A DNA stretch of 64,000 bases from Mantamonas sphyraenae STR306 (GCA_026936335.1 JAPMXV010000047.1:1-64000); one strand, 5' to 3'; positions 1 to 46,088 are shown, numbered from the stretch's first letter. Notes: a model not told the origin generated them from the sequence alone. Program-made: numbers and translations.

Positions 1-18
1 TTTCGCTCAAACACTGAC

Positions 19-7848: not shown

Positions 7849-8400
7849 TCATGTCTCTATCATTTCAAAGCCTGTCAAGTTGCTCGAACTCATGTGCTGC
7901 TGCCTATCCAGTTGTGCCTGCTGCTTCTCACTCCACACTTGTGTTTCATCGTCGGCGGTTGGATTTTCCAGGTAGATATCGTTTGACCTGTGCGCACCGC
8001 GGCGAAACTTCTTGGCAAGGTCCAGCTCGTGGAAGCTACACGGACATTGACCTTGGGCGCTCGCCTCTCCCCGGCCAGAGGAATACTGACTATTGTCCTG
8101 CTGCGTGCATTTCCAGTGGCGCCGCAGATTCTTGGCCGCTTGGGCCCAGCCGAACAGTTGCTTACCTGCCAGTATGTACGTGGCGTATTTTGGCTGTGCA
8201 CCGTCACCATCTTTCTTCGATCTCTTCATGATGGGCACACCAGCTTTCGATAGAAGTGTTTTCACAGCAGACAGTGTGAATTCTTTGTCCACCTTCTTGG
8301 TGGCCAGCAAGCAGCCATCTGAGGCCGAGTCAACATGTGTGTTGACAACGTCACGGATCTCGGCCAGGGTTTCTGCCGAGACCACTTGCCTGTCCGTCGA

Positions 8401-8432
<32 letters not shown>

Positions 8433-9186: not shown

Positions 9187-9222
<36 letters not shown>

Positions 9223-12700: not shown

Positions 12701-12886
12701 TTCAGACCGGCTGTCAGACCCCTGCATATCCCCACTGAGCGAAATCTTGATTGGTTGGGGGTGACGGCGCATCACGAACAGGAAAACATACTCGCCTATC
12801 GAGTGCTCCAACCGATGCCGCTGGTGTCCGGACCTGGTCCTGCACGCTGCTTCATCAACCAGGAGGTACCAACTCATCACACACAC
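9770..12886 (-). CDS. Herpes UL9-like replication origin-binding protein (SF2 helicase) with long N-terminal extension
   Basis: Motifs in UL9-family order: YFVCAPTALGKSLLL (I), SIIYRTALL (Ia), VVSTMESML, VNLDEI (II), YFASAEL (III), TSKIVEGVSVEPTAFD (V), VQMVNRVRNV (VI). Confidence 0.75.
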   Translation of the reverse strand: MCVMSWYLLVDEAACRTRSGHQRHRLEHSIGEYVFLFVMRRHPQPIKISLSGDMQGSDSRSEAKNEATVDGMELETDTGLPSAESTLAVHNHPATQVEPVRGSNEPVRGSNEAVNEIVVDVDNTTVKVGIGEDAEEPSSTAQRKGKGKLGTGFGMFERRYRKRGGPVYVQIGEETARMGIGNMEYPGYCEKMLRWYQEHAAENVVPLAEATYAQDMDHKLVVHFRYDGDEENDGVYVTHTKKVVLEFLQKLVGEYEDEDIEFMSVMYTIMVRRSADKDDPSVCVQLVVDLRVDRDTAERTLGILKEIEKKLGGVMVCSEMLLPERHSPSMCGLNSDHPVTVLQRFKGTVQQKAWNKSVRKLVMSEDYSKLLTAYSSTSALWPYTMQAEQTCPPVLANWLLHRLDTSDEQSTMSLDKYVSTFLTQHAQHEGLRYLGRILEETARLIPTRLPSDSCNTQTATDTMNTDESGAFDKTWEEADVQVRRSAFGNGAVRLIITDQEERTQIRVTLSRLPKVYVYVRKDENWAVCGGNPRHKVSQVPKSPDLCNLDLDTLLVLMSAILYNIQSQPARTMASDLEKERAEKDWLDGLKEKIHQQDVFVHAGRADDKEVWAKISQDMDHLRRDYEGQDDIEIEDAEGNLPMLVYFVCAPTALGKSLLLARLHSDYLMHATDGDDKESAFLQSSLSIIYRTALLPSLMDNLPGVVSYDDIRNGKRRKEDVQHVVSTMESMLRHVYHENMEPEFVNLDEIARLPSKLLEQTLAHNAPVNATLGCILRTFITAKMLYFASAELTPETVSFWVSTIRRLVPNRNLRFRVIVVGREKPRGMDVVIHRSQETFLQRMIAEWQHRPQADLEFLRDYRIFSAVDDLERCCELYTENQAAVTDRKPTVYLVKGKGVDKTEQDRSVRNLNAMSKSTFKRIPLTDFHKAQSERKQGLFRNMARSQSAKGCADHDATFVTSKIVEGVSVEPTAFDSFSFLRKPDLTSPMMVVQMVNRVRNVPNDVNEAFLRSQMNLVSVGRHKDYVANLELLFQAQKGL
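12546..12594. repeat. 21-bp in-frame tandem duplication (EPVRGSN x2)
   Basis: ctcgttgctacccctcacagg occurs twice in tandem; the protein reads VEPVRGSNEPVRGSNEAV. Confidence 0.85.
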
Positions 12887-12981
12887 ACATACGCCAGCTA
12901 GGCTGACTTTTGCGAGCTGGTGCCCGTACTGTTTAGCATCACTGTGTCAAGAACAAGGAAATTATAAAGCCCACCTTCTTT

Positions 12982-13413
12982 TTATGCTTCTGCTTCATCG
13001 TCTGGGATGGAACGTCGGTTGCGCCGGCGGGGGAGAATTATCTCGTCATCGTCATCTCCAGAGTCGTCCACATCGCTTCCGGAGTAGCATGAGCTGTTTA
13101 AATCGTCAACATCCACATCCAAGTCACTCCAGTTGGCATAGCCGTAGTTGTCCTCCTCATCAGACCCCTCGTTGTAGTACCACTGATCGTCCTCATCTTC
13201 CTCACTCGTCCAACGGTTCTCGTCCTCCTCGTCACTGCTTGTAAGCTCAATGCACTCCAAAAACTCGTCGTCATCCGCAATAAACTGCCTCATCTCCTCC
13301 TCCTCCTCCGAGTCCATAATCTCCTCCTCCTCAAATTCGTCATCAATAAAACGGAACCCGTACCCCCCTACTCCACTGATGGTTTCACCCCTATCTTCCT
13401 CGCCTCTCATCAT
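12982..13413 (-). CDS. Highly acidic small protein with basic C-terminal patch
   Basis: 143-aa ORF dominated by D/E, ending LPRRRNRRS. Probably extends upstream into ORF 13391-13591 via a frameshift. Confidence 0.55.
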   Translation of the reverse strand: MMRGEEDRGETISGVGGYGFRFIDDEFEEEEIMDSEEEEEMRQFIADDDEFLECIELTSSDEEDENRWTSEEDEDDQWYYNEGSDEEDNYGYANWSDLDVDVDDLNSSCYSGSDVDDSGDDDDEIILPRRRNRRSIPDDEAEA

Positions 13414-13752
13414 CTATTCCTTCTTCCAGTTCGTACCCGCTGCGGTAGTCTGCATCGTTGTCATCGACAACAATGTTGTGGTCATCATCGCCATCGTTCA
13501 TCGTTGGTGTGTTCAACGAACCGATTGCACCACTCGGCATCGAACCAGAGCACTTGTTTTCAGAATCACCTTTAATTGACTGATGGGTCATTTGGCGAAC
13601 TACACAACGTTATCTTGGCACAGCTGGAGCATTGCGAGGCACATCTGCTCGCGAGACTACCAATTGGTTTAACGTTACCAAAGTACAATACAACACCACA
13701 ACAATACGATACAGACAGTTTTTGTTCACATGACCTTGGACATCTTCACCGA

Positions 13753-14111
13753 TGGGTGGTTCCTGACGATGACCCGGGGTCCGGACTCGAGCTTCATCGT
13801 GAAAACCACACTTCTCACCCAGCCGACCCCACCTCTCAAAAAAAAAAAATCATAGGATGGTATATATATACAACTTTTTTTTTTTCGCCACACGACCTTG
13901 GGTGGTTCCTGACGATGACCCGGGGTCCGGACCTGAGCTTCATCGTGAAAACCACACTTCTCACCCAGCCGAGGCAAGACCACCCCACCTCTCCAAAAAA
14001 AAAAAATTCATAGGATGGTATATATATACAACTTTTTTTTTTCGCCACACGACCTTGGGTGGTTCCTGACGATGACCCGGGGTCCGGACCTGAGCTTCAT
14101 CGTGAAAACCA
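13753..14111. repeat. Tandem array (periods 146 and 157 bp; three GC-rich cores, two AT-rich spacers); candidate origin/terminus element
   Basis: Core TGGGTGGTTCCTGACGATGACCCGGGGTCCGGACCTGAGCTTCATCGTGAAAACCA starts at 13753 (variant), 13899 and 14056. Spacers read A-tract-TCATAGGATG-GTATATATATAC-AAC-T-tract. Confidence 0.9.
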
Positions 14112-14210
14112 GTTGGTCGAACGCTCATGGGCTGGCTCACAGTGTCTGAAGCCATGGAGCCACAATGCGGTGTTTGGCATCGTCTACAATACACTAGAGC
14201 AGAGGCACGT

Positions 14211-16515
14211 TCATTCGACAATCATCTCCGCGCTTTGTTTTTCTCTGTGAGAGATGGCCTTGCGGAGTGCAGCCACAAACGTCTTTGTGGTGGGCCCAAT
14301 ATAGCCTTCGTTTTCAACCGCCTTGGATCCTTGCATGAGTAAATCCAGGGCCTTCAACATTCTCACGTTGGTCTGTTTGCTCAGCGTCTCGCAGAGCTTG
14401 TCTTCATCGTCAGTTTCGTCGACATCCAGCAACGGGTAGAGAAACAACCCACGCTTGCAGCGAGTCAAAGCAACGTAAACGAGGTTCAACGACTCGTCCG
14501 CGTTACCTTGCGTGCTGGCAAACAGGTCAACGAGTCCGAGGATGTGCACATTCCCGCGATCGGCCCCCTTAGCTTTGTGTACCGTCGAGATCTGGATCTT
14601 GAAGAGTCCGTTGCCATCCATGGCGTCTGCTGGAGCGTGCATAAAGTCGTTGAAGCGCTGCTGGAGTTCGTGTACCCCCTGCTCATGAACGAGATCATCC
14701 CGCTGCAAGTACCGCCACCCTCGCACAAGAGCCACAGTTCGCAACATCATCGACACCCTGCGGTTCGCACCTCTGATGCTCCTGAAGAACTGCTGGACGT
14801 CCTGGCGAGTGTCGAAGCGACCGACCACGGCTGTGCGGCCAACGCCCTCCGTGTCGGCAACTTCTTCGGGTCCGAGCATCACCTGCAACTCGCGTTCGAC
14901 GAACCCCTGCGCGGTAGATCGCCACTCTTCCACATTCGTATGTTCTTCTGAGCCCCCGTGTTTGCTCCACCGACACTGGAGCTCAGTGCAAACTTGGGCG
15001 TACTCGTGGCCGCGATTGTCTGCAAGGAAGAATTGGTCGTACACAGCCAGCAACACACACTGCTCCTGGTTGTTGCGTACGATCAATAGGTCATCGTTTT
15101 CTGCCGTGGTCGCTCGGGGCAGCTCCTCGCGCGGCCCAAACGTACCTTGCGCAACGACGTCCTTGTCAAACTCGATTGGGGTGCCCAACGTCTCCAGCAC
15201 TGGTGCCATCTTGGAAAACACGCGACGTGTGAGTTTCAGCTCCAGGGTGTTCGTTCGCATCCCCTGGTTCGAGGCTTCCTCTTTCAGAGTGGCAAGCGCC
15301 GTTGGTGCCGCTCCTAGTGACAGGTTGATGGCCTGGCGCTTGTCGCCAAACACTGCAAGTATGCTGCCCTTCTTTTCCGTCATGCGGCGGGCAAATTCGA
15401 TCATGGCGGGAGTGCAGTCCTGTGCTTCGTCCACAATGAGCAGAGGGGCCACCATGTGCTTCTGCGGCAAGGAATCTGCGCCTGTGATGTTTGCCACGTA
15501 CACCGCATCTGGCATTGACACAATGCTTGTCATGTTGTTGGCAAACAGCTCGGCTGGCTTCAGCACCAGGCACACGAGCTCGGTCAGCACGCCCCGCTCA
15601 AACTCTGCCCCAAGCGCCTTTTTTTTCCAGTCCAGAGTGAGTGCGCAGATTGCGTTCCGTGTTGATCATGTGGTATACTTCACTCTTGTCGTTGCCAATG
15701 TTCATCTGCATGCAAGCCTGGCTGTAGAACTCAACCAGCGTTCGCAGCACCTTTTGCTCGACGCTCCTGACCAGCGGCGCATACTGCTGACAGCACTGTG
15801 TCAACACAGGCTTGGCAAACTTTACAATGTTTTGGTAGTGTCTCTGACACATGTCCCGAATTTCCTGGTTGTTGGTGCTTGCCTTGGACGCGTCGGCTCG
15901 TTTGACAAATTCGTTCGTAAGCTTGGTCACGTTTTCGCATAGGTACGAGTCAATGCGCTCATCGTCGATCTTCATGCCCTGTTGCATGTCAGCGCTCGCT
16001 CTGCACAGTACCTGCACAAAGTATCTCGGAAGAACCGAGCTCGAAGAGCTCGAATCAAACGTCACCGCTCCCTTTGCATGACTGCCCAAATCGCTCATGG
16101 CCTTGGAATGGAAAGTGCACACGTGCACACCATCGTCACTCCGCTTTGCCGCCACCTTGACTCCAGCTCGCTCGAGTGCCTCCTTCAAATCGTTCGCGTT
16201 GGCGCGGTTGAACACCAGCACATACAGAGCTCGGTCGGTCGTCCACCGATTCTCTCCACCCTCTTCTCTGAGGACTTCCTTCACAATAACCCTGATCACA
16301 GTCGACTTGCCCGCACCCGGCACTGCCTCAATCACAAGCCCCACCGCGTCCTTCTTTCGCGTCGCGGCCACTATCAAATCGACAAGCTCCCTCTGATCCC
16401 TGCTCAATGGCCTCTCTGTTGCTCTGCAAACATCTCCAGCCGATGCGGATGACGAGCAAGGCTGATCCAGGTGCTGCGTCGAGTCTGAAACGGCGCTCGC
16501 GTCTACTTCGTCCAT
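14211..16515 (-). CDS. UvrD/Rep/FBH1-like SF1 DNA helicase (~767 aa when joined; 1-nt frameshift at T8 run 15619-15626)
   Basis: AVPGAGKST (I), LVFNRANA (Ia), TFHSKA (Ib), IVDEAQD (II), FGDKRQAI (III), STVHKAKG (V), VYVALTRCK (VI). The right-arm copy has 7 A at this run and reads through. Confidence 0.9.
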
Positions 16516-16533
16516 GCGCCATGCCCGTGGGGG

Positions 16534-16839
16534 TTAGTTATTGTTGTAGAGGTGTTTATGTTTTACCAACCACGTAATTTGGAACCGTGTGTGGACGTTT
16601 GGGGGGCACGTACCAAGGTCAATGCGAGCCTGTTTCTTTGGCTGGGGCAGTGCCGCTGCAACTGTCGAAATCCACTCGTCCTCCTGGTACGACTCCTCAA
16701 TACTTGCTGAACGTGCACGTTTGCGCCCTTCTTCGTCGTGGGGCTGTGAACCTGCATCGGGCTGGCTCGTTTCGTCTGCCAGGACAATGTCACCAACACT
16801 CTCATCGACAGGGTCGATTTCCGGGATATCGATGTCCAT
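16534..16839 (-). CDS. Small acidic hypothetical protein with NLS-like motifs
   Basis: 101-aa ATG ORF ending 18 nt before the helicase start; contains RKRARS and KKQARI. Confidence 0.55.
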   Translation of the reverse strand: MDIDIPEIDPVDESVGDIVLADETSQPDAGSQPHDEEGRKRARSASIEESYQEDEWISTVAAALPQPKKQARIDLGTCPPNVHTRFQITWLVKHKHLYNNN

Positions 16840-17058
16840 GATTGCTTGTTTGCGTCTTGTGAGTGATCGAGCGGATTACTGTGACGTGCAAAGTGCAATC
16901 GCGTTGAGTTGCCTCAGACGGGGCAACCACGAGCTGCAGACCAAGTTGGACCGACAGGGCCACAGTGATGCTCCCACGCCCCTCAGAGCTTCCTCCATGC
17001 CCACACAGGTCGACACATCCATCTGTCAACCAGTAGTCCATGTATGGTCCCTGTTTGT

Positions 17059-17385
17059 GGTTTGTTTCGTGGTCCCGGACTTGGTCCGGACTGGACCTTC
17101 ATCGAAACCTCCAGTCACACGAATTGATGAGGTGAAATGAAAAGCCAAAAAATCAAAATACACCCGATTTTACGATGACCAGTGGGTCCGGACCTGGTCC
17201 GGGCCCAGGCTTCATCGCAAAACCAATCACAATCCACAGTGTGTGTGACCAAAGAGTGTGTTGGTACATGTGCGGAACTGTCCTCCCAGGACTTGGTCCA
17301 GGACTCACTGATATCGAAAGCGGTGAGCGAAACGACACGAACCCGACGATGAGAGTGGTCCCGGGCGAGGTCCAACCAGGCCCAC
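17059..17385. promoter_or_regulatory. Cluster of degenerate copies of the GGTCCGGACC core element in a divergent intergenic region
   Basis: 17168-17225 ttttACGATGACCagtgGGTCCGGACCTGgtccgggcccagGCTTCATCGcAAAACCA matches the 13.75-kb core. Weaker copies near 17060-17110, 17285-17305 and 17346-17385. Confidence 0.7.
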
Positions 17386-17434
17386 CACCTTGATTGGGTG
17401 AAAGGTGTACACCTCCTTGTGAACCACACAAGTC

Positions 17435-20400
17435 GTGGGCGCTGTGGGCTCCGTCGTCGATACGTTGATTACGTTGAGCAAGAGGACAAAGGGGCCAAGC
17501 AAGTTGCGCAGAACCCACCAAAGCCGCCCTTTGTTCTGCTCCATGGAGAACAGTGAGCAACAGGAGGGCAATGTTTGGGGAGCCACACATCGTAGAGATA
17601 GACCTGCAGCATCACGTAAACGCAAGAGGTCCGCCAAGCACCAGCGACGCAAGGGGGGTGGCCGATTTGGCGTCCAGGTGGCTGCGCAGCAAGTGCCCAT
17701 CCGGCTCGGGGACCAAGAACAAGAGCAAGAAGAGGAGCCGCAGAGCATTGACCCTGTAACTGACCACGCACCTAAGCGGTCCCGGGTAGAGTCTACCCCA
17801 TCTGCATCTTCGAGCTCCAGCTCCAGCTCCAGCTCCGAGACCCCAAACGGCACGGTGGGTTTCCCCTCTTGCAACCTCCATCCCGGCCCAGGTCATGCAC
17901 TCACACGTACCGAATGCGCGCATGTGTGGACATCCTGTGCCCGTCGCCACTACTTGCAGCCCAATGGTGACCAACAGGCCCCTGCTTCACCTTCAAAGCA
18001 CCAGCTGCCTGACAAGCACACATACGAGAGCATCACCTTGGAGCTGATCGAAGATATCAACAAGAACGAGCTCACACACCTAGGACCCAATGCTAAGCAC
18101 CCCAAGAGCAACCTAGTTGCCGCTTTTCAACAGTATCAAGGCGGCGAGGTAACCCCTGGTCAAGTGAAAGCGCTCGTGTGGGCGGCCGCCTCAGCATCAC
18201 TGGACCTCCCGCCTCCCGAGCCCCTGCTTACCTCCTACGAGAAATTGAGGCAATTTGTCAACAGTGCATATGTGTGTACATCAAACATGTCTTCAGCCCA
18301 GTGGGATTTGGTGGTCTATGCAAGTTTCTCGGGGCTGATCCCGCTCACAGTGCTCTGGGAACACACTGGGTGCCACTCCTGGACCTACTATGGAGGTATG
18401 AATCGCAATATCATTCGACCTGCATTCCACCTCACGGATGTTCGCATTGACAGCACACCGGCTTTGGAAGTTGACGAGCGACGTTTGATGAGCGTGGAGC
18501 TGGAGGCAGCCACCCTTGTTCAGGCCAAGCTGCTCTCGCTGGACAAAGAGAATGAGCAGGAAAGAGAGACACTGGAAGCGCTCGCAGAGAACTGGATGTC
18601 GTCCATTGAAGAGCTTTTACACCAGCGTGGAGGCAACAAAAAGGAGCCGCTGTGGGTTCATGGTTCGAGCTGCAAACTCACCTCTGAGCCAGAGAGTGTC
18701 ATCAACAAATACTGTCAAACGTTTCTTGAGAACAACAGTCAGGAGAGGGTCGATATTGTGGAGACACTAATCTGCTTCTGGATGGACCCCAAACACGGTG
18801 CCAACGCAACACGGTTTCGCGAGTTCCCGTCGATGCGCTCGAGTCTGATTGCCACCACCAATCCACAGACCCTCTGCAAGGCGGCTCTGCTTGCCCAGCG
18901 GGTGACTGCTGAGCACCAGGAGAACCTGACAAAGGCTCGCCAGTTTGCGGATGAAATTCGTTCCCAGGCGAGGAGCGACAGCGCGTCTGAGGACGAATTG
19001 GCCATACTCACGTGCTTGGCATTTGTGGGTGTAGTCCCGCTGTGCAAACTTGGCGCTTGGTACAAAGACGTGGAAGAACACGTCCTCGTGCCCGTTTTCG
19101 ACAAGCTCGAGTCCATCGAACCCTTCCACGATTACCCCCTACCGCTCCAAATTCTGTTGGAAACTGAGCTACATCGTGCCCATGAACTTCATGCACACGC
19201 TTTTCAGCAAGATCAGGACGCTGCAGCCGCCAACACGAACGACTGCGAGCGAACAGTGCTGCGCAAGGCCTGGCGGAACTCCTTGGTTGGCTTGCTCGAA
19301 CGACAGCACGACGCGTGGGAACACAATGTCAAAGCCATGAACGGCTACAGTGTCACCTCAGACTATTGTGTACAGTGCCTGATTCGATCGGACCGAGCAG
19401 CCCCCCACCACGGCGTGCCGATTGCCCGAGCTATCACATGTTCATGGGTCCACCACATCGCTCAGAAGAAGCAAGTCGCCAAGTTGGCTGCACATGCCGT
19501 GTACCGCTTTGCGGCGACCGCCTGGATGTCGCCACGTGCCTATCTCAGCAGCAACATGCACAAGACATCGACGGCAACCGAACACACAAGCATCTGTCGC
19601 CCACTCCTTTGGATCCACTGCTTCGACAGCGACGCCGGCCTTCTTCTGTGGGATCCAAAGCCATCGGGTCGCGCTTCAAGCTCCTCTTTGAACAACAGCG
19701 AGCACCCTGGCGCCTTTGCGTGGATGGCCAAACAACCCTTCTGTCCGGCCACCTGCCCTGTTGCAGCCAATCTCGACGCCGCCCTGATGGCTCAGAACGC
19801 CTTTCCCTGCCTCACCTATGACACAGCCAAAGAATCTGTCCCTCTCATGGAACCACGACAATGGCGTGCTCGTATGAAGAGGGCCTGGACTGTGCGCAAC
19901 CACTACGTGTACCCACGCTTCGCACTCAAACTTGCCTGGCTCTTGCACTGGCGGCTGCAGAATCTTTCCCCCCATCCGCAGGTCAGTGAGGACTCGTCCG
20001 ACGAGGAAGACCGCCATGGCTCCGCTGGCAACACAGAATCCAATGGACCCTTGGATCACCTGCAGCAACTCCGCAAGGACTCCTGGCCCTCCACACGCGT
20101 GCAAGGGACAGTGCTCCACGAATGGGAGATCATCAACCTCCCGCACGTTTTTGCAAACCTCATCGACCACAGCACTCTCAAAGCACTCACAAAGAGCCGC
20201 GCGTCAAACAACGCAAACCGTTCGCGTTCCAAAACTCGCGTGCCCAGAGAAGTCAAGTACTTGTCCGTTTTGGAAGGCAAAGACACCATCGACGCAACCA
20301 AGCTGTTTCCGTACGAGGCCACGTGGTGGGAGCTCGGCTCGGTTCTCTTTGATCGTGAGTACTCTCGCTGCACCGCAGACTACCGTGCCCTCCGTTCCCG

Positions 20401-20650
20401 CCTGAAAGATCTCCCCTTCCCTTGGGTCCCTCCTTCCTATTCGGACGACGACGACGATTTGATTGACTGCCGCGAGCGCTGGGACACGGTCACCGACAAA
20501 CTCCTCCCGTCGATGATCCAGCTTTTTCTGCGCAACAAGAGCGCCTCCGTGTCCACAAACACGACGCATCCAACAGAACAGGACTGCTGGCCACAAACAG
20601 GCATCCGGCCCATGCCGACAGACCCCTGGAATGACTATGCCGATATCTAG
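17435..20650 (+). CDS. Large hypothetical protein (1071 aa; ATG at 17543 may be the true start)
   Basis: Long uninterrupted ORF, identical in both arms, with N-terminal basic and Ser-rich region. No family recognised. Confidence 0.75.
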   Translation: MGAVGSVVDTLITLSKRTKGPSKLRRTHQSRPLFCSMENSEQQEGNVWGATHRRDRPAASRKRKRSAKHQRRKGGGRFGVQVAAQQVPIRLGDQEQEQEEEPQSIDPVTDHAPKRSRVESTPSASSSSSSSSSSETPNGTVGFPSCNLHPGPGHALTRTECAHVWTSCARRHYLQPNGDQQAPASPSKHQLPDKHTYESITLELIEDINKNELTHLGPNAKHPKSNLVAAFQQYQGGEVTPGQVKALVWAAASASLDLPPPEPLLTSYEKLRQFVNSAYVCTSNMSSAQWDLVVYASFSGLIPLTVLWEHTGCHSWTYYGGMNRNIIRPAFHLTDVRIDSTPALEVDERRLMSVELEAATLVQAKLLSLDKENEQERETLEALAENWMSSIEELLHQRGGNKKEPLWVHGSSCKLTSEPESVINKYCQTFLENNSQERVDIVETLICFWMDPKHGANATRFREFPSMRSSLIATTNPQTLCKAALLAQRVTAEHQENLTKARQFADEIRSQARSDSASEDELAILTCLAFVGVVPLCKLGAWYKDVEEHVLVPVFDKLESIEPFHDYPLPLQILLETELHRAHELHAHAFQQDQDAAAANTNDCERTVLRKAWRNSLVGLLERQHDAWEHNVKAMNGYSVTSDYCVQCLIRSDRAAPHHGVPIARAITCSWVHHIAQKKQVAKLAAHAVYRFAATAWMSPRAYLSSNMHKTSTATEHTSICRPLLWIHCFDSDAGLLLWDPKPSGRASSSSLNNSEHPGAFAWMAKQPFCPATCPVAANLDAALMAQNAFPCLTYDTAKESVPLMEPRQWRARMKRAWTVRNHYVYPRFALKLAWLLHWRLQNLSPHPQVSEDSSDEEDRHGSAGNTESNGPLDHLQQLRKDSWPSTRVQGTVLHEWEIINLPHVFANLIDHSTLKALTKSRASNNANRSRSKTRVPREVKYLSVLEGKDTIDATKLFPYEATWWELGSVLFDREYSRCTADYRALRSRLKDLPFPWVPPSYSDDDDDLIDCRERWDTVTDKLLPSMIQLFLRNKSASVSTNTTHPTEQDCWPQTGIRPMPTDPWNDYADI

Positions 20651-20655
20651 TAGGG

Positions 20656-21159
20656 ATGATTTTCCGATCCACCGCACCAACCCTGCACCACTGCGCCTCT
20701 GGTCATCGGTCGCCAGCAACCCACACCATCCACACACAGTCAAGGTTTTCCATGCTGGCGGGATATAGAGACGTGGATTGCAATCCCTGCACTGCGCCGG
20801 CTGGTCCAAAACAACAACGACAAATGACGCGGAGAACCCAGTTACCCCCTGACATGCAGACCCTCCTGGTCGAGATTATCAGGTGGCTCCAGCTCGCAGG
20901 TGATCTCACCTACATCACACCCTGCACCTCGCACATGGACATCGAGTCCCTGCCTTCAGCGCGCAACAACAGCACCACAATGGATCTCGAGAACACCTCG
21001 TCAGCAGAAACTCTCCACCGCAACAGGACAAAGCGACATCCCTCTCCGCTGCAAGATCGCAGCATAGACGACCCATACGATTGCTCGTGGTCCTCTGGAG
21101 ACCTCCTTCAAGAGGACGAGGGCCCGCCGCACAGAAAAAGGCGCAGACACGCTCGGTGA
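20656..21159 (+). CDS. Hypothetical protein with C-terminal NLS-like RKRRR
   Basis: 167-aa ORF directly after the 1071-aa gene on the same strand. Confidence 0.4.
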   Translation: MIFRSTAPTLHHCASGHRSPATHTIHTQSRFSMLAGYRDVDCNPCTAPAGPKQQRQMTRRTQLPPDMQTLLVEIIRWLQLAGDLTYITPCTSHMDIESLPSARNNSTTMDLENTSSAETLHRNRTKRHPSPLQDRSIDDPYDCSWSSGDLLQEDEGPPHRKRRRHAR

Positions 21160-22502
21160 GATGCAGTCCAGAGGAGGAGGCAAGAGACACCCAAACTCGA
21201 ACGGCCTGGGGTCTGCATGCGGAACCCCGCCAAGCACATGGGTTGCACCGCGTGACAGCGTGCCTGATAGTGCAGCCCCTTCTCAGCGAGCTCGTTCTTG
21301 CTCAAAGCTACCGATTGTCGAGGGAGCCGAAGCAGGCACAGAAAGCACATGGACGACGTGGCGTCTACACCATCACAGAATGACCATGGCTGCACGGGAC
21401 GGGTATATGGACTGCTACGTCCGGATTTCGTCGCCCCTGCACGCGAGACGTGCACCAACTGGGAAGTGACCACAAACGCGTGAATGAACAAGTGTATATG
21501 TGTGTGTGTGGTTGTGTGGTGTGTTTCCATGCATCGATGTGTCGGCGCGTCGTTGTAGGTGAGTGTGACGAAAAAAATTTGTGATGAGGTGATGTCCTCC
21601 GGCGAGATGGTTGAGTTGCGCTGTGAGCAAGACGCAGTCTCCTGTATAGGATAAGGGTGTGGATTCATGTACGGTTTGCAAAGAGGGAGGGGTGATTGGC
21701 TGCTTTGTGGGAACGGAAAAAGTAGGAAGATGGTGGAGAGAAGGGAAAGTGCTTGGTAGGCCCGTGGGAGTCGCGTCTATTGCAGTACATGGCTCACCTT
21801 GCTGGAAACAGGATGTACTCGAGGTGTGAACGAGCAGGAGGTATCTGGTGATTGGGGTGGCTTGTGTCGCTAGTCGCTTGTTTCGATCGTTGCACACCAG
21901 ATGGTTGTTCCCTGTGGGTTCAATGTGGGAGGAGGACAAAGTTTTACAGTGTACATTGGTGGAGGAAGGGCCTGGGAGGGGGTGGTGTCTCCACTCATTG
22001 TGGGATGTGGGCGTGGTGGACTATCATTTTCAGAGTGTCCACGGTGGTGTGGATGAAGTCTCGAGGGGTGCCATCGATGCGTGTGATGTCTCACACGACG
22101 GTGCAATTGTGCTCTGGGGTGATGGTGTGGTGGGATGTGAGGGAGATGCGGTGGCAATGCGAATACCCGGTTTGGACATAATGCACCAATTTCGTACAAA
22201 CAGTGCCATAGTGCTCATCACAAACGGAAAGAGTGTTCCCATCGTCGATCCAGGTCGTTACAGGACTCCCATGTGGATGTAGGGGTTGGAAAGGGTGTAA
22301 TAGAGTGTCCAGTGAGGGTGAGCACACTGGGGGAGGTCAGTGTAGTTGCGGCAGCTCCAGAGAATCTGTGCATTTTTTCGAAGCTGGACACGGAGGGGGG
22401 GTCGAAGACGTGTGCACCCACACGCACAGGTGGCATCAATCGGCCATGGTGGGCTTTTCGTGCGCGTAGTCTCGTCCACACCATCACTGAACCGCGGTCA
22501 AG

Positions 22503-23792
22503 ATGACAGCGCGGCAGACAAAACGCATGGTAGCCATCGACATGAGCAAACAGGGAGACTGGGAGGCGCAGGCCGAGGCTCTGGTGGAGGGGAGAGAGCA
22601 AGCGTACGACCTGGACGTGTCACGCAACCTGCTGTCTGCACACGACGCACGCGCAGTCGCTCGCTTGCTGCGTCGCTCGACACAGTTGCACACGTTGGAG
22701 CTCGGCGAGAACGAACTGGGACGTGGCGGCGTGATATCCATTGCCAGCGCCCTGTGTGTCAACACCACCCTGCGTGTGTTGCATCTGGAGGCAAACGAGC
22801 TGGGTGTGGACGGTGCACGCGCATTGGGACGGATGTTGGGAAAGAACAACACGCTGGCATGCCTGTATCTGGGCAACAATGATTTGGGGGACAGCGGTAT
22901 GGAAAAACTGGGTGTAGGGCTGATTGGGAACCGCGGTGTGCAGGTGCTGGGTCTGGAGGACAACGACATCGGATACCGTGGCGTTGTTGTGCTGGCGGCA
23001 GTCCTTGTGGAAAACACACGGCTGCACACAGTGAACCTGGACGGAAACAACATGGGCGACTTTGGCGCCATGCTACTCGGCGACGCACTCGTGCACAACC
23101 ACACGGTGCAGCGGCTGGACCTGAGCAACAACGGCGTGGGCGACGACGGACTGGACAGGCTGGGCAAGGCGCTGTCAGGCGGCAACACAGACGTGTGGTA
23201 CCTGGGCCACAGCCAGGAGCTGTGCAACGTGGACGGAGTGAGGGAGAACAGGTGGATGGTCAAGACAATGCTGGAAATGGTGGACAGAGGAGACGCAGTG
23301 GCGGTGGCCTGGGCGGTCAGCGAGCTGAACGTGTCGGTGAACGCGTTCTTTGAAGACAGAACCACACCGTTGATGCGCGCGGTGCAGCGAGGCGACGTCA
23401 GGATGGCCAACATGCTGCGGAGACTAGGGGCAGACGCGGATTTGACCGCAGAGGGGTGGCTGGACGCATATTCGGCGCGGACAATGGCCACTGCCAGAGC
23501 GTGGAGACCAGCGTGGCATTGGTTGTGGAGTGAAGACGTGGACGACGCTGTCGAGACGGTGTTGGTCATGGAGGCAGTGGGAGGAGGAGCAGGAGGAGGA
23601 GGAGCAGGGTGGGTGCGCGTGGGTGAGATGGAGGTGCTGCAGCGCGTGTGCGGTTGGGTCGCACAGTTCGTCGAGGGCTGTGAGAGACGTGCAAAGGGAC
23701 GTGGGGGGCGGAACAAGACACACAGGGGTGTGAGGGGGGAGCGGGAGGACCAGGGCAGAGTGGGAGGGAAGCGGCAGCGTGTGGGAGAGTGA
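22503..23792 (+). CDS. RNI-like leucine-rich-repeat protein with an ankyrin repeat
   Basis: About seven 28-aa LRRs (LHTLELGENELGRGG, LRVLHLEANELGVDGARALG, ...) followed by TTPLMRAVQRGDVRMANMLRRLGADADL. Confidence 0.9.
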   Translation: MTARQTKRMVAIDMSKQGDWEAQAEALVEGREQAYDLDVSRNLLSAHDARAVARLLRRSTQLHTLELGENELGRGGVISIASALCVNTTLRVLHLEANELGVDGARALGRMLGKNNTLACLYLGNNDLGDSGMEKLGVGLIGNRGVQVLGLEDNDIGYRGVVVLAAVLVENTRLHTVNLDGNNMGDFGAMLLGDALVHNHTVQRLDLSNNGVGDDGLDRLGKALSGGNTDVWYLGHSQELCNVDGVRENRWMVKTMLEMVDRGDAVAVAWAVSELNVSVNAFFEDRTTPLMRAVQRGDVRMANMLRRLGADADLTAEGWLDAYSARTMATARAWRPAWHWLWSEDVDDAVETVLVMEAVGGGAGGGGAGWVRVGEMEVLQRVCGWVAQFVEGCERRAKGRGGRNKTHRGVRGEREDQGRVGGKRQRVGE

Positions 23793-23864
23793 AGGAGGGG
23801 AGTTGTGCAGAAGAAACGGTGCGTGACATGACAAAGGGCGGCCCACTACGGTGAAGATTACAGC

Positions 23865-24662
23865 ATGGAAACAGATTCATTCCCGCTTACCGTCTCCGCG
23901 GTTGGAACTTTTGCTTTGTTGCACACAATACAACCGTATCTGTTCAGCCGACAACTGTTTTCCGTGATGAGCCGACTGATGCATGACATTGTGCAAATTC
24001 ACAAAGATATGAAACAGCTTGGACTGCAAATAAGGAACGCCTACGAGTGTGTGGCTGAAACCTCGCTGCTTCTCCACGCGCGGCTCCAGGACCTTCAGAT
24101 ACTGAAATCGAGGACCCTTTCATGTGAACGGAACGAACAGGCTGGCAGTGGTCCGTTGCGTGTTAGCGCACCGTCCGGAAAGAAAGAGAAGGGTGTCGCT
24201 GGGCGGCGTGGAAGAAAGCGCGCTCGCCAGGTCGCCTCGTTGGACGCTGAAAACGACCACATGTGTGTATCATTGAAACGGCAACGCGTGGAGTTGCATA
24301 TAACTCCAGGCATGCATGTCATGATGTGCTTGATGCTGATTTCTGGTGTAGAGAGACCCTCGTTGTCGGACGAGCTCCGGGTGCTTTGCCCTCTTGGGTT
24401 CGCCTGGTCCGTTGATGACAACAATGACCCACGCGCTCTGTACTGGAAGCAACTGGAACGAATCCTTCACAAGCACCGGTGTCTCGGAACGGCACAAGAC
24501 GGAGTCATTTGCATGCGAGCCGATACTTGCTCGGTTGACAACATCCACGACGCATTGTCGCCAAAATGGGTTTGGACAGAGGTGGACGGAGCGAGGCAGG
24601 AGCTCTCCTCGTCTATTTGCCTTTACATCCAAGCGCTGTTTCTCCAGCTGGGCTATCGGTAA
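23865..24662 (+). CDS. Hypothetical protein with coiled-coil and NLS-like motifs
   Basis: 265-aa ATG ORF with RRGRKRARQ and LKRQRVE; identical in both arms. Confidence 0.55.
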   Translation: METDSFPLTVSAVGTFALLHTIQPYLFSRQLFSVMSRLMHDIVQIHKDMKQLGLQIRNAYECVAETSLLLHARLQDLQILKSRTLSCERNEQAGSGPLRVSAPSGKKEKGVAGRRGRKRARQVASLDAENDHMCVSLKRQRVELHITPGMHVMMCLMLISGVERPSLSDELRVLCPLGFAWSVDDNNDPRALYWKQLERILHKHRCLGTAQDGVICMRADTCSVDNIHDALSPKWVWTEVDGARQELSSSICLYIQALFLQLGYR

Positions 24663-24729
24663 GCGGGCGCAGGAATGCATGAGGGAAATGTGCCAATGTG
24701 ACCCTCCACGTAGATGGCCGTCTGGGAGC

Positions 24730-26338
24730 CTACCCGGGTTTGAATCTCCCCCACAGAGTAGGCCAAGCAGGTGCAAGCACAATGGAGCCCTCGCTTTGCT
24801 TTGTGGGCCACGTATCCGCTGTTGTGATGTTCAACAGCTCGTGGACAGTGTCTTCAACGTCAACTGGTGTCGGAAGCTCGGTAAAAAAGTCCATGCTGCC
24901 ACTGCTGGAAGGGCTACTGTGTCTTGCGCTGCTGCTGTTCGACCGGCTATCGTTGCCATGGCTTGAGGGTGAGCCATTCCTTGCTGCAGTCTTCCAGTCA
25001 TTGTTTGCTTTCAGATTGTGATGGTTTGCAACTGACATCTTGTCATCGACGCCGGTTGTCTCGAATTGCACGTTGCTTGGCGTGGCCATTGTTGTTTGGG
25101 ATGATCGTGTCGAGTAGTTTGGAAACAAAGGCAAGTTAGCCAATCCATCGGCGGACATCTGAGACGCCATTTCAAGATTCCTAAGGTCTTCGGCATCAAC
25201 GTTGTCTTTCGAATTGTGGACAAGGGTGGTCAACATCCGAACGAGCGACTGCGTCCGCATCAGCTTTTCCTGCATCTTGCTCAGCAAGGCACGCTGCACT
25301 TGTAGGTGCACTTGCATGGCCTTTACACCACTCTGTAGCATTTGATTCTCTTTGTGCAGGTGCACAATCTGTACTCGTGGTGTTCCTTTCTCGATGCGCG
25401 TCGCTGTGGGCGATGTGTTCCAGTTTGCCGTCTTTGGCCACTCTTGCCCAGCTGTACTGTCTCTCACGACATGCTGCCGCTTTTCATCGGGGTGACCACC
25501 GTTTTCGTTTGGTTCCTGGTGCATGGTGTGATCTGTGTCGTCGGAGCTGCGCTTTCGCTTCCGGCTCTGCAATGCAGTGCAGGTGTTAGGGATCATACCG
25601 CGTGCACAACGTACGGCTAATGATCACCGTTGAGTCAAAAGCACGTGAAAATGTCCTCTGCGTCGGGATTCTCTCACCACAGCGCAGCGAAACGAAACCT
25701 GCAGCTGACCGTGGAAGAATCTCCACCTTTTCTTCTCCGCCTACCTTTGCGCTGCCTGTGTGTCTTTTGATGCTCCCGATACTGCGTACATCTGTTCGAA
25801 GAAACTTGGGATGGGAAAAGATAGCACTGCCCACTTTCCAGAATCCATAGGCGTTGAGTTGTCGCGCGAAACTCAAATACGACGAGTGGCGGAACACGGC
25901 ACCCAGAACTTCCTCCTCGAGTGCACGGGTGTCATGGACGACGATCCGACAGGAATTTTCAGGGCGCGAGTTCTCTGAACATGGGCCACCCTCAAGGACA
26001 GCCCGGTTACGAGTCTCTTGGCTTTGATGTGTGGTCGTGTTGTTACCGACGGATCGTTCCATATCCCCACAAGGCTCCCAGCCCCAAGAGATGATGTGTT
26101 GTGTGTCCGGATTCTCCAGCATCGTGAATGTTTGAATCAGGAACGTGGGCGTGCCTCTGGGGAAATAGAAGATGCGACCATCCGTTGTGATTGCTTTTCT
26201 CCCTTCTTTTGCAAGCTCTGCAGCCTCGGCAGGGGGTTGTTCAAGCAGCTTGGGTGGACATGATCGCCGATTCACCGACATGCCGTCGGTGGGAGGCGCG
26301 TGTAGAAGAGAGGAATTTGACTTGTGGCGGTCGCGCAT
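24730..26338 (-). CDS. HSF-type transcription factor, two exons (predicted intron about 25567-25744)
   Basis: HSF DNA-binding domain FLIQTFTMLE..IISW..FRHSSYLSFARQLNAYGFWKV..FSHPKFLR..IKR in ORF 25586-26338. HR-A/B-like heptads LHKENQML..QVQRALLSKMQEKL in ORF 24730-25596. Confidence 0.85.
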
Positions 26339-26386
26339 GATGTTGTCGCATTCCGAGATGGAACCAGTGGCTTGTACAAGCTTGTT

Positions 26387-27025
26387 TTAGATATCAGATA
26401 CCTCGCCAGAATTCATTGTCCCCACCTCCAGCCTTGTCATCACCTCATCTGGAAGTGTGCTGCATAGTGCACTTGGCTGGTTTTCCTCCATCCCTCCACA
26501 CGCAAACATCGCCTCCCTCTCCTCCACATTCATCACCAACGCCACCTTCATCGCCTCATCCACCTGTCCAACCCACCCAATCCAATGCCACGCCTTCCTC
26601 CACCCTGCCTCCCTCACCATCTCCACCGTTTTCACCCTCGGCTGCTCACCCCATTCTCTCAACACCTCCGTAATCCTCTCGTCCCGTTCACTCACTGCTC
26701 GCTCCAGCGCGGGTTTCAACTCCACAGGCACACCCCACTCCCTCAGCGCAGCCATCTTCTCCACATCCCCACAATCCACAAACTCCACATGCTGCTTCTT
26801 GTTTATCTCCAACAGCGACTTCAGTGCGTCGTTGTCAACGCCCAGTATCTTGCAGCACGACCGATTGTCTTCCATTGCCTTTGTCAGTGCTTCAGTTCCT
26901 CCTACACTGATGACGTTGTCACCGAGGTACAGACTGTGCAAGCTGCTGTTCTCACTCAGCGCCTGCGCAACTGCTACTGCACCTTCTTCCTTGATGTTGT
27001 TGCTCCAGAGTTATAGCGTCTCCTG
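26387..27025 (-). pseudogene. Truncated LRR protein, paralogue of 22503-23792, with in-frame stop at 27011-27013
   Basis: ETL*LWSNNIKEEGAVAVAQALSENSSLHSLYLGDNVISVGG; shares the WRxAWHW...VDxA..xLVM C-terminal motif. Confidence 0.7.
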
Positions 27026-27376
27026 TGGCAACCTGGGCTTGCACTCAGCGCACCACGAGTCGCATGGTTGACCTCAACAAGGATGGGTTTGTCAACACCG
27101 ACGGGTTTGTGCGCGCCTTTGACGAATGCAACCTCCATGCCCTCGACGATGGACAGTAACACGTGTCGGTTGAGCGCAAGGACGCCTGGCAACGAGGGAC
27201 ACATGCTCTGGGAGGTCCCAGTCGCCTCTTGTAGCCCTATCGGGTGTCGATGTGCACGTGCCTGTCCCCTTCCAACTCTACCTGAACGTGCTGTGTGGGT
27301 GGCATATGGAAACAGAGCCGTGATAGCCACGTGAAAGGCGAGCTTGGTTTTGGGAGGGAAAACCAAGAAACGGGCT

Positions 27377-27664
27377 CTACTCACTCTGACGACACTCACC
27401 AGGCTCTACAGCGTCTCCGGACTCGTCATTCACCCACTGCTGCTTCTCCCCGCGTGCTTGTTGGGAATCTTGCGTGGACACAGTTGCCGTGCTTGCGCTC
27501 GAGTCTTCCGAGCTGGTCGAGAGGGTCCGCTTGCGCTGGAGGCGTGTAACTCTTTGCAACGGAGAGGCTTCCACGTCTTGGATGTCAAGTGCTTGGATGT
27601 CAAGTGCAGGCCAGGCAAGACCCTCGGACGATTCGAGTGTGGACACAGCTTCGTTGAGGGACAT
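27377..27664 (-). CDS. Small hypothetical protein (ALDIQ x2)
   Basis: ATG-initiated ~95-aa part of ORF 27377-27802, with a 15-bp tandem duplication. Confidence 0.4.
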   Translation of the reverse strand: MSLNEAVSTLESSEGLAWPALDIQALDIQDVEASPLQRVTRLQRKRTLSTSSEDSSASTATVSTQDSQQARGEKQQWVNDESGDAVEPGECRQSE

Positions 27665-28406
27665 TGTTGGGTTGGGTAGTTGGACGCAAAGCGGCAGTTG
27701 GTTGAAAATTTGCGTTTTCGTCAAGATTGGATGCAACAAACTCGGTGTTCCTGTACCGACGGGGTCGAGGCACGCCCACGGTTGATGCGCCACCAAACCC
27801 ATTCAATTTCACAAGCAGAATGCGATCACATACCCATAGATATCTGTGGCTGGTCTTGGCCGCGTGTCTGCTGCTGGTGGAAACGGGTGAGTGCGGGAGT
27901 GTCGTCGTTTGGGTTTTTTCGCTCGTTTCCATTCGTCTCCGGACTTGTCCCTTGCAAGCGCGTGACAACCCCCCCACACGGCCCTATGGACCCTCCACGC
28001 TTTCAATGGCACCATGGGAAGTGGGAGCAATGCATGAATCGTGGGCCGGACGATTGCGGGGAGTTGAATGCCTTCTTTGTGTGGTGGCGTCGCTGCGTTT
28101 GGCGAATGCGCCCAGAGGGAAAAAATACCTGGATCCTTGTAGCGGTGGAGCGCCGTGTGCGCTCCACCGCCCCCGCCAGAGTATGGAAGCTGTGTCGATC
28201 GGCACTCTGTTCCGAATGATGATCCCCTGTGCATGCGACGTGTTTGTTTGTGCCCTCCCCCTGCGTGCGGTTTCGTCCCAAAAACGGTTTGACAACCGAC
28301 AAAAACGGCCTCGACGCATGTTTGGCGTGTTTGACTTGCCGTTGTCCTCACACCCGGCGCTTTCCCTCCAACAGGCTTGGCACACAACTCCTACCCTGTT
28401 TCCGAC

Positions 28407-35079: not shown

Positions 35080-35116
35080 GCCGAAAAGATAAACCCCTCC
35101 TCCACCAAAGAAGGGA
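35080..35116 (+). repeat. 37-bp element, perfect inverted copy of 46050-46086
   Basis: gccgaaaagataaacccctcctccaccaaagaaggga. Confidence 0.9.
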
Positions 35117-39717: not shown

Positions 39718-40908
39718 CTATTCATTTCCCTGCTTCTTGACAAACGCAAATCGAATGTAGTGGCTCAACGACATGCTCATATCCTGGTGTCCAAGCATAC
39801 CTTGGAGCAGCGTCAACCCTTGCCTCTTCAGTTCCTGCGCTCCCAACCACTCTGGATCCATGGCCAGCTGGTACAAAGCATAGCTAGTGTTCCACTGTCG
39901 CGGGTAGTTCAACCAGCTCTTCCAGGAGCAGTGCAGGTCCAGCGGGTGACCCTGTTTGCTCCACCGCACAATCTCATCGTATGACAGCCCTGTGATAGGT
40001 TCATCCACATCTCGATCCAAGCAGGACAGACACTCCATGTCCATCAGTGTCTCTCGCCAGAATTTGCGCACGACCCGTGTGGATCCGGCGGCGATGATGG
40101 ATTGGAGTTGCTCTGCGCAATAGTCGGCTCCGTTTTCGATGAGCTCTTGATGGGTAAACAGGAGAATAGGTGCCCAGCGTCCTTCTTCCACCTTGCCCTG
40201 CGCGGTAAAGTGCACCCAGAGATACCCATCGGCTGAACGGACCTCGTCGACTACCGTTGTCTTTTTGGCCACATCCACCAGTGCTGTGCGAAAGTAGAGC
40301 AGCATATACATCGATTCTGGTGTGTGCAATCCCGTGTTGAGGATGACCTGACGCACAGCTTCCCAGGCATCGAGAGAGACGGTCCGACCAAGATCCACCA
40401 AGGCCTTTTGCAGGAAGTGGGGCGTCACACGCAGCATCTGAGCCAGCTTGGCTTCCTTTTTGCGAGACAACAGCTTGCGCATGACCAGGTTGACGGGTTC
40501 CAGCTCGGCCATGCCCAGCAGTTGTCCTTGCAGCTGTTCGTCGTTTTCGTCGCGGCCGGGTTTGACCACCATCCGCTTGCTCTTGCGCTTCCACTCTTGA
40601 CTGGCATCGGCCACGGGGAGATCGGCGTAGAATAGAGGGGCAGAGGTGCCGGTGTAGGTGCTGGGACCTTGCTGGTTGGAACTGGAGGAGAGGGAGAGGC
40701 TTGCGAGGTCAGCGACGAGGCTGGAGACATCATCGGCGTCTGTGTGAAGGGAGGGGTGTGAGTGGGGAGGTTGAGGCCGTGCAGGTGGATTGGAATCGGG
40801 GTACAAGATGTGCCGATAGATCCTACCTTGTGTGTGTGCCATAGCAGCGAAGTCGTCGTTTCCCGCCTCTTTGTCAACGGCCGTTTGTGCCATTGTCTCT
40901 AAGCGCAT
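39718..40908 (-). CDS. Divergent protelomerase/telomere-resolvase-like tyrosine recombinase
   Basis: VHFTAQGK (cf. FSGQAK), NYPRQW (xxxR), DPEW, and MLGHQDMSMSLSHYIRF (cf. phage N15 TelN ILGHDDENTQLHYKQF, recalled from memory) in correct order. The first catalytic Arg is ambiguous (YFRTALVDV). Confidence 0.65.
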   Translation of the reverse strand: MRLETMAQTAVDKEAGNDDFAAMAHTQGRIYRHILYPDSNPPARPQPPHSHPSLHTDADDVSSLVADLASLSLSSSSNQQGPSTYTGTSAPLFYADLPVADASQEWKRKSKRMVVKPGRDENDEQLQGQLLGMAELEPVNLVMRKLLSRKKEAKLAQMLRVTPHFLQKALVDLGRTVSLDAWEAVRQVILNTGLHTPESMYMLLYFRTALVDVAKKTTVVDEVRSADGYLWVHFTAQGKVEEGRWAPILLFTHQELIENGADYCAEQLQSIIAAGSTRVVRKFWRETLMDMECLSCLDRDVDEPITGLSYDEIVRWSKQGHPLDLHCSWKSWLNYPRQWNTSYALYQLAMDPEWLGAQELKRQGLTLLQGMLGHQDMSMSLSHYIRFAFVKKQGNE

Positions 40909-40926
40909 GGGTGAGAGAAGAGTGAG

Positions 40927-41283
40927 TCATTGAAGTGGTGTAGATAGTTGACTAGTGGTGATTTGACGGCAGATACTACCTTGTGCGCGCCTCTTGGCCT
41001 GCTGGCGTGCAAATTCTTGCTCGGCTGCTTTCAACGCCGCGCGGCGGTCCTGTACATGCTGCTGCGCTTCATCAATGGCAGTAAACGCCTGTGGGTTGTC
41101 CTTGCGGTGCTGTGGGTTAAACAGTGACAACCCAGCCTCCTTGAGCTCTGCCTTGATGGACGTCCACTCGTCTGCTGCTTCGCGCGCGGCCAACCGAGCG
41201 GCATGCAGTTCGTCCTTAGCCAACTGCAATGACGATGATTCAGTGTTCAGTGACACGTTCTCCTTGGCTTCTACGGTGGACAT
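40927..41283 (-). CDS. Small helical/coiled-coil hypothetical protein
   Basis: ATG at 41283, Ala/Glu/Gln-rich, ends 18 nt upstream of the resolvase-like gene on the same strand. Confidence 0.5.
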   Translation of the reverse strand: MSTVEAKENVSLNTESSSLQLAKDELHAARLAAREAADEWTSIKAELKEAGLSLFNPQHRKDNPQAFTAIDEAQQHVQDRRAALKAAEQEFARQQAKRRAQGSICRQITTSQLSTPLQ

Positions 41284-46033: not shown

Positions 46034-46088
46034 ATGCCCGAAAAGATACTCCCTTCTTTGGTGGAGGAGGGGTTTATCTTTTCGGCAT
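46034..46088. terminator. Hairpin-forming element, candidate transcript 3'-end signal
   Basis: atgcc(c)gaaaagata ... tatcttttcggcat stem; related copies at 35080 and about 44654. Confidence 0.4.

Follow-up and report, generated by a model that had tools for sequence, protein, structure and literature searches.

In eukaryotes, tyrosine recombinases are markers of mobile elements, and on repeated occasions they have become host proteins that bind DNA. The active site of the superfamily is described as a pentad of two Arg, a Lys, a His, and a His or Trp, plus a Tyr (PMC4381057). For the protelomerase TelA, the catalytic set comprises Arg255, Lys286, Tyr363, Arg366, His394, and Tyr405, with Arg255 termed essential (PMC3558466). 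Catalytically dead derivatives of recombinases include the DUF3504 proteins and Ndc10/Gcr1 (PMC3212892) and MrpR of prophage SPbeta (PMC10516654). Three further sources (PMC3537659, PMC13221069, and bioRxiv 10.64898/2026.06.19.733378) served as background only. A literature search, mostly at the level of listed entries, yielded no paper describing a gene or element like the one reported here, and a query that combined origin-binding protein or UL9 with endogenous, protist, and tyrosine recombinase gave no match.

The gene is located in a 64,000-nt stretch of the Mantamonas sphyraenae STR306 assembly (hereafter the window), in which the original prediction had singled out a 396-codon ORF as a hidden protelomerase-like tyrosine recombinase. 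We confirmed that the ORF is open at 39718-40908(-), and all of the motif strings quoted for it are present in the order given (FRTALVD at residue 206, FTAQGK at 234, NYPR at 334, LGHQ at 372, and SHY at 382; residue numbers follow the 396-codon ORF, and the number in the spliced protein is the ORF number + 69). Because a contig from one sequencing run (X3) skips two GT-AG introns, the ORF is not the full gene, which would instead have two introns and encode a 465-aa orphan protein, the C-terminal half of which is a predicted tyrosine-recombinase catalytic domain. The parts of the gene are as follows.

40980..41283, minus strand: exon 1; the X3 contig reaches 41278 and joins 40980 to 40898
40899..40979, minus strand: intron 1; 81 nt, GTAG...AG, stops in all three frames
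40827..40898, minus strand: exon 2; 72 nt, based on the X3 contig and the open spliced frame
40740..40826, minus strand: intron 2; 87 nt, GTAG...AG, in frame, coding frame without a stop
39718..40739, minus strand: exon 3; holds the entire predicted recombinase-type catalytic domain (ORF residues about 170-393)

The region is present in four public runs (X1 to X4) of one study, two of which are possibly the source of the assembly and none of which is recorded as RNA. The X3 contig (depth 30, 39727-41278) omits 40899-40979 and 40740-40826, both of which read GTAG...AG on the minus strand and are preceded by AAG; this evidence of splicing comes from a single contig of a single run, and the joints are absent from the other three. 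GT-AG intervals are also skipped in two other genes in X3, and its depth is very uneven. Given the spliced joints and the uneven depth, we infer that X3 is RNA, and the gene is apparently spliced and transcribed. The spliced frame is open with a single stop and gives 465 aa from the ATG at 41283, the likely start codon, or 496 aa from an in-frame ATG at 41376. The start assumed earlier (ATG 40908) falls in intron 1 sequence, and ORF residues 28-57 correspond to intron 2 according to the X3 contig; the ORF reads through intron 2 because this intron is in frame and has no stop. Exon 1, supplied by a same-frame ORF at 40927-41379, is Ala/Glu/Gln-rich and coiled-coil-like by eye, with no Pfam family above cut-off. 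GC3 is 0.69, matching the neighbouring genes. The X1 and X2 contigs across 39529-46079 and the X3 contig list zero differing letters, so the codons in the catalytic columns discussed below are not assembly errors.

Sequence searches of the ORF against Pfam, NCBIfam, PHROGs, and the PDB gave no relevant match. A word-indexed search with residues 125-396 retained none of 1,186 candidates at E 0.1, and phmmer found no homologue among 1.84 billion representatives (the sole match, at E 8e-4, was a bacterial cell-wall-hydrolase-like repeat and was discarded as spurious). No relative was found in IMG/VR, none of 37 pattern matches in metagenome contigs was confirmed, and tblastn against phage records returned four records at E 4-5. 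When the ORF was compared with N15 TelN as a single pair, only the C-terminal part aligned by BLASTP (23% over 118 columns, E 0.024). The protein belongs to no described family and is invisible to standard annotation; the proposal of a hidden and very divergent recombinase-superfamily domain in a eukaryotic context, missed by Pfam, NCBIfam, PHROGs, and PDB searches, is supported. With homologues absent, assignment to a family depends on remote-similarity methods.

We assessed the domain with language-model features, profiles, and ordered motif blocks. A search of the ESM Atlas with residues 125-396 gave top scores of 0.94, with 16 of the 30 matches in the PF00589 set and the other 14 unnamed. 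A second search used residues 185-394 against named clusters only, with PF00589 excluded. Recombinase families made up 26 of its 30 matches: PF12835 (seven, best score 0.95), PF16684 (nine, best score 0.94), PF16795 (six), and PF22823 MrpR (four); three further matches among those shown were also recombinase-related, including an Ndc10 cluster at 0.88. Shuffled proteins reach 0.9 in 4-10 of 100 cases, and shared-feature counts for matches scoring at least 0.9 (108-135 of 256) are below the 170 typical for same-family matches, so the Atlas result indicates a distant relative. The boxes of the ORF are as follows.

40315..40335, minus strand: box I TGLHTPE, residues 192-198, placed by both family profiles and by alignments
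40165..40209, minus strand: K box FTAQGKVEEGRWAPI with Lys239, which fits the protelomerase FxGQxK and the integrase GKxxxxRxVP patterns
39889..39909, minus strand: box II region NYPRQWN in its best register, which is weakly determined
39757..39804, minus strand: QGMLGHQDMSMSLSHY with His374 and Tyr384, the latter at the predicted nucleophile position

In an ordered test of five blocks (box I, K, box II, H, and Y), the ORF scored 31.8 with the integrase profile and 25.4 with the protelomerase profile, values reached by none of 1,000 shuffles in either case, and ranked first among 70 ORFs of the window with both. The profiles were built from 62 protelomerases and 29 integrases (a few of the integrase ORFs are wrongly picked frames), and the spacing limits were equal for both, generous, and set post hoc after global alignments. 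Ordered-block tests that included the catalytic His were equalled by 0-4 of 1,000 shuffles. A global hhalign comparison was uninformative (5 of 100 shuffles), and profile-HMM scores were weak, with an integrase HMM equalled by 27 of 1,000 shuffles. With a protelomerase HMM from 17 sequences, the ORF took first place among 425, though with an E value of 2.8 (2.9 bits, 7 of 1,000 shuffles), and this signal was lost with 62 sequences (-1.1 bits, 112 of 1,000 shuffles equally good).

These results bear on the alternative that the motif resemblance arose by chance in an unrelated orphan protein. The lack of any match in Pfam, NCBIfam, PHROGs, PDB sequences, phage records, and the 1.84 billion representatives fits such a reading, as do a block test that was not significant when the catalytic His was left out (26-41 of 300 shuffles), the failure of unguided folding (see below), and the selection of the ORF for its motifs out of the whole window. 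Against it, two Atlas searches with different segments, one of them without PF00589, both gave recombinase families, and two elements that had not been noticed earlier, box I and an R-x-x-P stretch extending the K box, occur in the right order. We consider a chance resemblance decidedly unlikely and regard a tyrosine-recombinase fold as highly probable.

An unguided AlphaFold model failed (pLDDT 38.7), and its fold search returned Bcl-2-like helical bundles with Z at most 5.8. A second model was guided by an alignment with 12 integrase domains, which were used because MAFFT with whole protelomerases misaligned the query; this model is of low confidence, with a pLDDT of 62.6 (about 80 over the C-terminal boxes) and a pTM of 0.63. 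Foldseek with the guided model gave no match at E 0.001 (best E 0.14, TM about 0.3), although the first 15 matches shown were all recombinases or topoisomerases IB, and a BFVD search found nothing at E 0.001. VIA-align placed recombinase-titled entries in 17 of its first 18 matches, with XerH (Z 6.5), lambda Int (6.3), TelA (6.0), and TelK (5.4) tied and all below 8. The superposition on TelK and TelA that had been proposed as a check ties with integrases and uses a model that is circular. Being built on an integrase alignment, the guided model only shows compatibility with a recombinase fold.

As poxviral and bacterial topoisomerases IB are among the fold matches, a divergent type IB topoisomerase was also weighed. 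YFRT and RQWNTS in the ORF are reminiscent of topoisomerase IB boxes. The HMM built from 18 bacterial topoisomerase IB loci, a set that lacks eukaryotic and viral members and in which one frame or more was wrongly picked, scored the ORF at -2.6 bits (435 of 1,000 shuffles equally good), there was no match to PF01028 or any other Pfam family, and no topoisomerase family appeared among the Atlas matches shown. This identity therefore seems extremely unlikely.

Within the superfamily, the query resembles two groups. It shares TGLxxxE, GKxxxxRxxP, and QxMLGHxDxS..Y, in the same order, with XerC/D- and phage-integrase-type recombinases (PF00589, PF12835; XerH 5jjv, lambda Int 1z1b); XerH gave the best structural match (Z 6.5, rmsd 4.6, 154 residues aligned) and PF12835 the best Atlas score of 0.95. 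It differs from integrases in having His for the first Arg, lacking HxxR, and carrying insertions of about 16 and 25 residues; identity is 15-22% with no Pfam match, the query has spliceosomal introns, and its long N-terminal part is not core-binding-domain-like by any search. With the protelomerases TelN, TelK, TelA, and ResT (PF16684), it shares FxxQxK, the C-terminal H..HY..F, and a long distance from Lys to box II, with TelA giving Z 6.0 (rmsd 5.0, 160 aligned) and PF16684 an Atlas score of 0.94. It differs from protelomerases in the absence of GRRxxE, in a box-I-to-Lys spacing of 44 versus 25-37, in a doubtful second Arg, and in that no tos/telRL-type palindrome was found in the window. 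On the integrase blocks, true protelomerases reach scores of 18-43, and the protelomerase blocks give true integrases scores of -1 to 38. By these scores, the query sits at cross-family distance, and its sequence features place it midway between the two groups. Integrase and protelomerase ancestry are tied and not separable.

The assignment to protelomerases specifically is not supported. Integrases score equally well or better (Atlas 0.95 for PF12835 versus 0.94 for PF16684), the K box and LGH box can be aligned equally well to Xer-type motifs, and the Arg that is invariant in protelomerases (62 of 62) is His in the query. The HMM search that had been suggested returned no PF16684 match at E up to 10, and our own 62-sequence HMM gave the negative score reported above; PF16684 itself was present in a single genome of the 401 sampled. 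We also considered a functional protelomerase that would form the hairpin telomeres of a linear element, as FTAQGK is like FSGQAK and SHYIRF like LHYKQF of TelN, 9 of 30 filtered Atlas matches were PF16684 (up to 0.94), TelA and TelK match structurally in a tie with integrases, the Lys-to-box-II spacing of 98-101 is near the family range of 72-96, and the ends of the molecule fall outside the window. Set against these are GLHTPE in place of GRRxxE, the loss of the HMM signal, and the palindromes. A palindrome scan gave the control, N15 telRL, a score of 22 (11 perfect pairs, no spacer). No telRL-like palindrome was found in 1-50842, where the single palindrome at threshold (12-bp arms, 5-nt spacer) is at shuffle level. 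The two targets proposed for a cleavage assay fared no better: 17168-17225 scored 9 with an odd (1-nt) centre, and the boxes of 13753-14111 scored 6 or less. Taken together, a working protelomerase is very unlikely.

FRTALVD had been read as the first Arg motif, but both family profiles choose TGLHTPE, and Arg207 scores negative; mean BLOSUM sums in the box I register are 10.5 and 7.1 (two families) for His195 versus -5.3 and -4.4 for Arg207. Global alignments line up VILNTGLHTPES with AAVSGRRMIEIM of TelN and with LLYATGLRVSEL-type boxes of Xer-like integrases, and the pattern [TS]G[LMIR]xxxE occurs in 0.4% of shuffled 36-position windows. Box I is expected in a loop between two helices, and the guided model places the His195 site there (helix 179-192, loop G193-H195, a helix, and then a beta hairpin around the K box). 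His195 (codon CAC, 40324-40326; His264 in the spliced protein) occupies the first catalytic Arg column, which is Arg in all 62 protelomerases and in 26 of 29 integrases, and no read difference is listed at its codon in the covering X1, X2, and X3 contigs.

In the K box, FTAQGK has the protelomerase FxGQxK feature with Gly replaced by Ala (block score 7.7-9.8 bits), and GKVEEGRWAPI is in register with GKGNKERLVPL of locus L098. The best register of box II pairs PRQWN with PHTLR, so that the His/Lys column is occupied by Arg337 and the second Arg column by Asn340; both families favour Asn340 for the latter (-1.1 and 1.3, versus -7.6 and -5.4 for Arg337), with box II scores near or below zero in every register. 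The C-terminal motif is LGHx9Y rather than LGHx8Y, and the spacing of 10 from His374 to Tyr384 is within the 9-21 of the family. In place of a complete R-K-H-R-H/W pentad plus Tyr, alignment A3 has H195-K239-R337-N340-H374-Y384. From the sequence, both catalytic arginines are likely lost, with His195 and probably Asn340 in their columns, and Lys239, His374, and Tyr384 are retained. The suggestion that the enzyme is partly degenerate is supported.

Arg mutants of Cre retain binding and synapsis (PMC4381057). As the Arg columns are altered here, the most likely state by analogy would be one in which cleavage is lost and DNA binding kept. On balance, we therefore lean towards a catalytically degenerate, DNA-binding recombinase derivative. 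A mobile-element recombinase would have been retained as a site-specific DNA-binding or bridging protein, the target of which would most plausibly be the long inverted-repeat molecule that carries the gene. DUF3504, Ndc10/Gcr1, and MrpR offer the nearest parallel, as they too have a recombinase fold (predicted in the query) and are missing Arg/His residues of the catalytic set; the Atlas matches include clusters of MrpR (0.90) and Ndc10 (0.88), and MrpR (8a0a) gave Z 4.0. They differ in that no sequence similarity to them was detected and the query keeps three catalytic positions, and the query is a single orphan on an inverted-repeat molecule rather than a conserved host gene family. If the protein is dead, it would represent a separate domestication event, or a gene seen in the course of decay while three of its catalytic residues are still present.

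Several observations count against the degenerate reading. The CAC codon of His195 is one substitution from an Arg codon, so the Arg may have been lost only recently, in a gene that is merely in decay. The Lys, the His, and the Tyr have all been kept, which is unusual for an old domesticated copy. Box II is weak everywhere and Arg is natural at the Arg337 column (19 of 62 protelomerases), which would also suit a rearranged active site. A related alternative is that the inverted-repeat element encodes an active but atypical tyrosine recombinase (an invertase, integrase, or resolvase); the role of the canonical arginines would then fall to Arg337, perhaps together with His195 or Arg207. It agrees with the intact Lys239, His374, and Tyr384, with the Arg frequency at the Arg337 column, and with a gene that is spliced and apparently transcribed; it conflicts with the retention of both canonical Arg in 62 of 62 protelomerases and with the negative score of Arg207 in the box I column. 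Together with the repeat evidence given below, this leaves such an enzyme an unlikely explanation, if one with appreciable weight.

The main features of the surrounding molecule are as follows.

1..27772, no strand: left arm; 14615-27772 is paired at 99.95%, and 1-14614 is assigned by its doubled depth
27773..50841, no strand: unique spacer of 23,069 nt that holds the gene, at half of the arm read depth
50842..64000, no strand: right arm, which ends at the window edge
35080..35116, plus strand: 37-bp inverted repeat, left copy, perfect
46050..46086, minus strand: 37-bp inverted repeat, right copy, which overlaps an imperfect hairpin
14211..16515, minus strand: UvrD/REP-type SF1 helicase gene, with a mirror copy at 62100-63920(+)
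9770..12877, minus strand: 1035-codon ORF with a P-loop and helicase-like motifs (APTALGKS, NLDEI, QMVNRVRN)
13753..14111, no strand: array of three GC-rich boxes, set apart by two spacers of the form A-tract/TATATATA/T-tract, between two helicase genes

The window contains an inverted repeat of 13.16 kb at 99.95% identity (14615-27772 / 50842-64000). Contig depth in the arms is about 264 versus 137 in the spacer for X1, 189 versus 101 for X2, and 10-11 versus 3-5 for X4 (depth is not copy number, though the arm/spacer ratio is consistent), and doubled depth continues to position 1, beyond which a contig extends about 3.2 kb. The right junction is bridged by contigs, a loose end in X4 matches the left junction, and the arm junctions share no repeat. 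A fold-back artefact is ruled out by the 23-kb spacer, the halving of depth in three DNA runs, and contig support at both junctions, and the inverted-repeat structure is real. Assuming that one molecule carries both copies, its length is probably 85 kb or more, and it may be a minichromosome, amplicon, or episome. The original prediction had also remarked on the nearness of the gene to the repeat midpoint at 39307. The gene does end 411 nt away, but this nearness to the symmetry axis is no more than chance would give, since a gene of this span falls as close about 10% of the time; no local symmetry was found in the midpoint region of the spacer.

Perfect 37-bp inverted repeats bracket 11 kb including the gene, and these repeats are one place where an active recombinase would invert or resolve the element. 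The helicase genes and origin-like array held by the arms also agree with this alternative. Active integrase- or Xer-type recombinases use paired sites, in each of which a 6-8 bp spacer separates two short arms in inverted orientation; the 37-bp repeats are without this internal structure. No strand-changing joint is listed at the 37-bp repeats or arm junctions in any of the four runs (short-read contigs break there and cannot show one), and the arm junctions have no repeat in common, both of which weigh against activity. Other inverted repeats lie in the AT-richer part of the spacer that holds the 37-bp pair (44661-44835 versus 45883-46064, and 45470-45541).

The arms encode UvrD helicase, HSF, LRR, SET, and propeller genes. 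A frame break in the 14211-16515 helicase copy coincides with a 1-nt difference from short-read contigs at 15619. The ORF at 9770-12877 has a putative resemblance to origin-binding SF2 helicases; database support for an origin-binding helicase was not found, with AAA_22 the only match (E 0.033). By its anatomy, the array at 13753-14111 looks replication origin-like and not like a resolvase-type palindrome. Boxes of a GC-rich family, CGATG(A/C)C...TCCGGAC...CTTCATC, occur at 12813, 13767, 13913, 14070, and 17173 (mirror 61442), each close to a 5' or 3' end of one of the two helicase genes. Rfam gave nothing at gathering score in 1-50900 and one chance-level match in 12500-17600.

These arms allow a bolder reading, in which the molecule is an undescribed self-replicating nuclear element or minichromosome and its central gene encodes a functional recombinase, which has rebuilt its active site and serves to flip, resolve, or cap the element. 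Each arm would then carry an origin-like array between SF2-like and UvrD helicase genes, and the rebuilt site would have His at Arg-I and Arg at His-I. We hold this to be quite unlikely. If active, the enzyme would overturn the rule of two invariant arginines, and the microbial eukaryote that carries it would be expected to have a large inverted-repeat element of a kind not seen before. Cryptons, DIRS/Ngaro, Starships, polinton-like viruses, and the Flp system of the 2-micron plasmid likewise have a eukaryotic recombinase-type gene beside helicase genes, and long inverted repeats. They differ from this locus, in which the gene is central rather than terminal and the arms are at least 28 kb. 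A Pfam scan of 153 window ORFs (in sets of 5, 16, and 132; 13 of the 163 ORFs of at least 115 aa in 1-50900 lay outside it) found no capsid, reverse transcriptase, pPolB, DUF3435/DUF3504, or viral hallmark family.

Other features of the window were recorded alongside. In 7849-12877(-), a helicase-like ORF is followed by shorter ORFs with several 1-2 nt indels relative to short-read contigs, and one X3 contig covers 9231-12711; these ORFs may be one gene split by assembly errors. Compared with all four runs, 1-14614 shows numerous substitutions and indels (in 1-8392 alone, 21 substitutions and 87 gap letters); here the assembly looks unpolished, which is not the case for the spacer or the paired part of the arm. 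The gene at 28407-34868(+) encodes a 2153-aa protein that has C-terminal repeats rich in cysteine and tryptophan and matches no Pfam family above cut-off; over the 3' part of the gene, summed X3 contig depth climbs to about 30,000, and the DNA contigs point to a paralogue at another locus. An LRR-like coding stretch at 51677-52130 (mirror about 26484-26937) has very high summed depth and many loose ends in all four runs, and is probably multicopy in the genome. Further GT-AG introns were seen in X3 contigs at 6038-6169(+) and at 16503-16613(-), the latter at the 5' end of the UvrD helicase gene.
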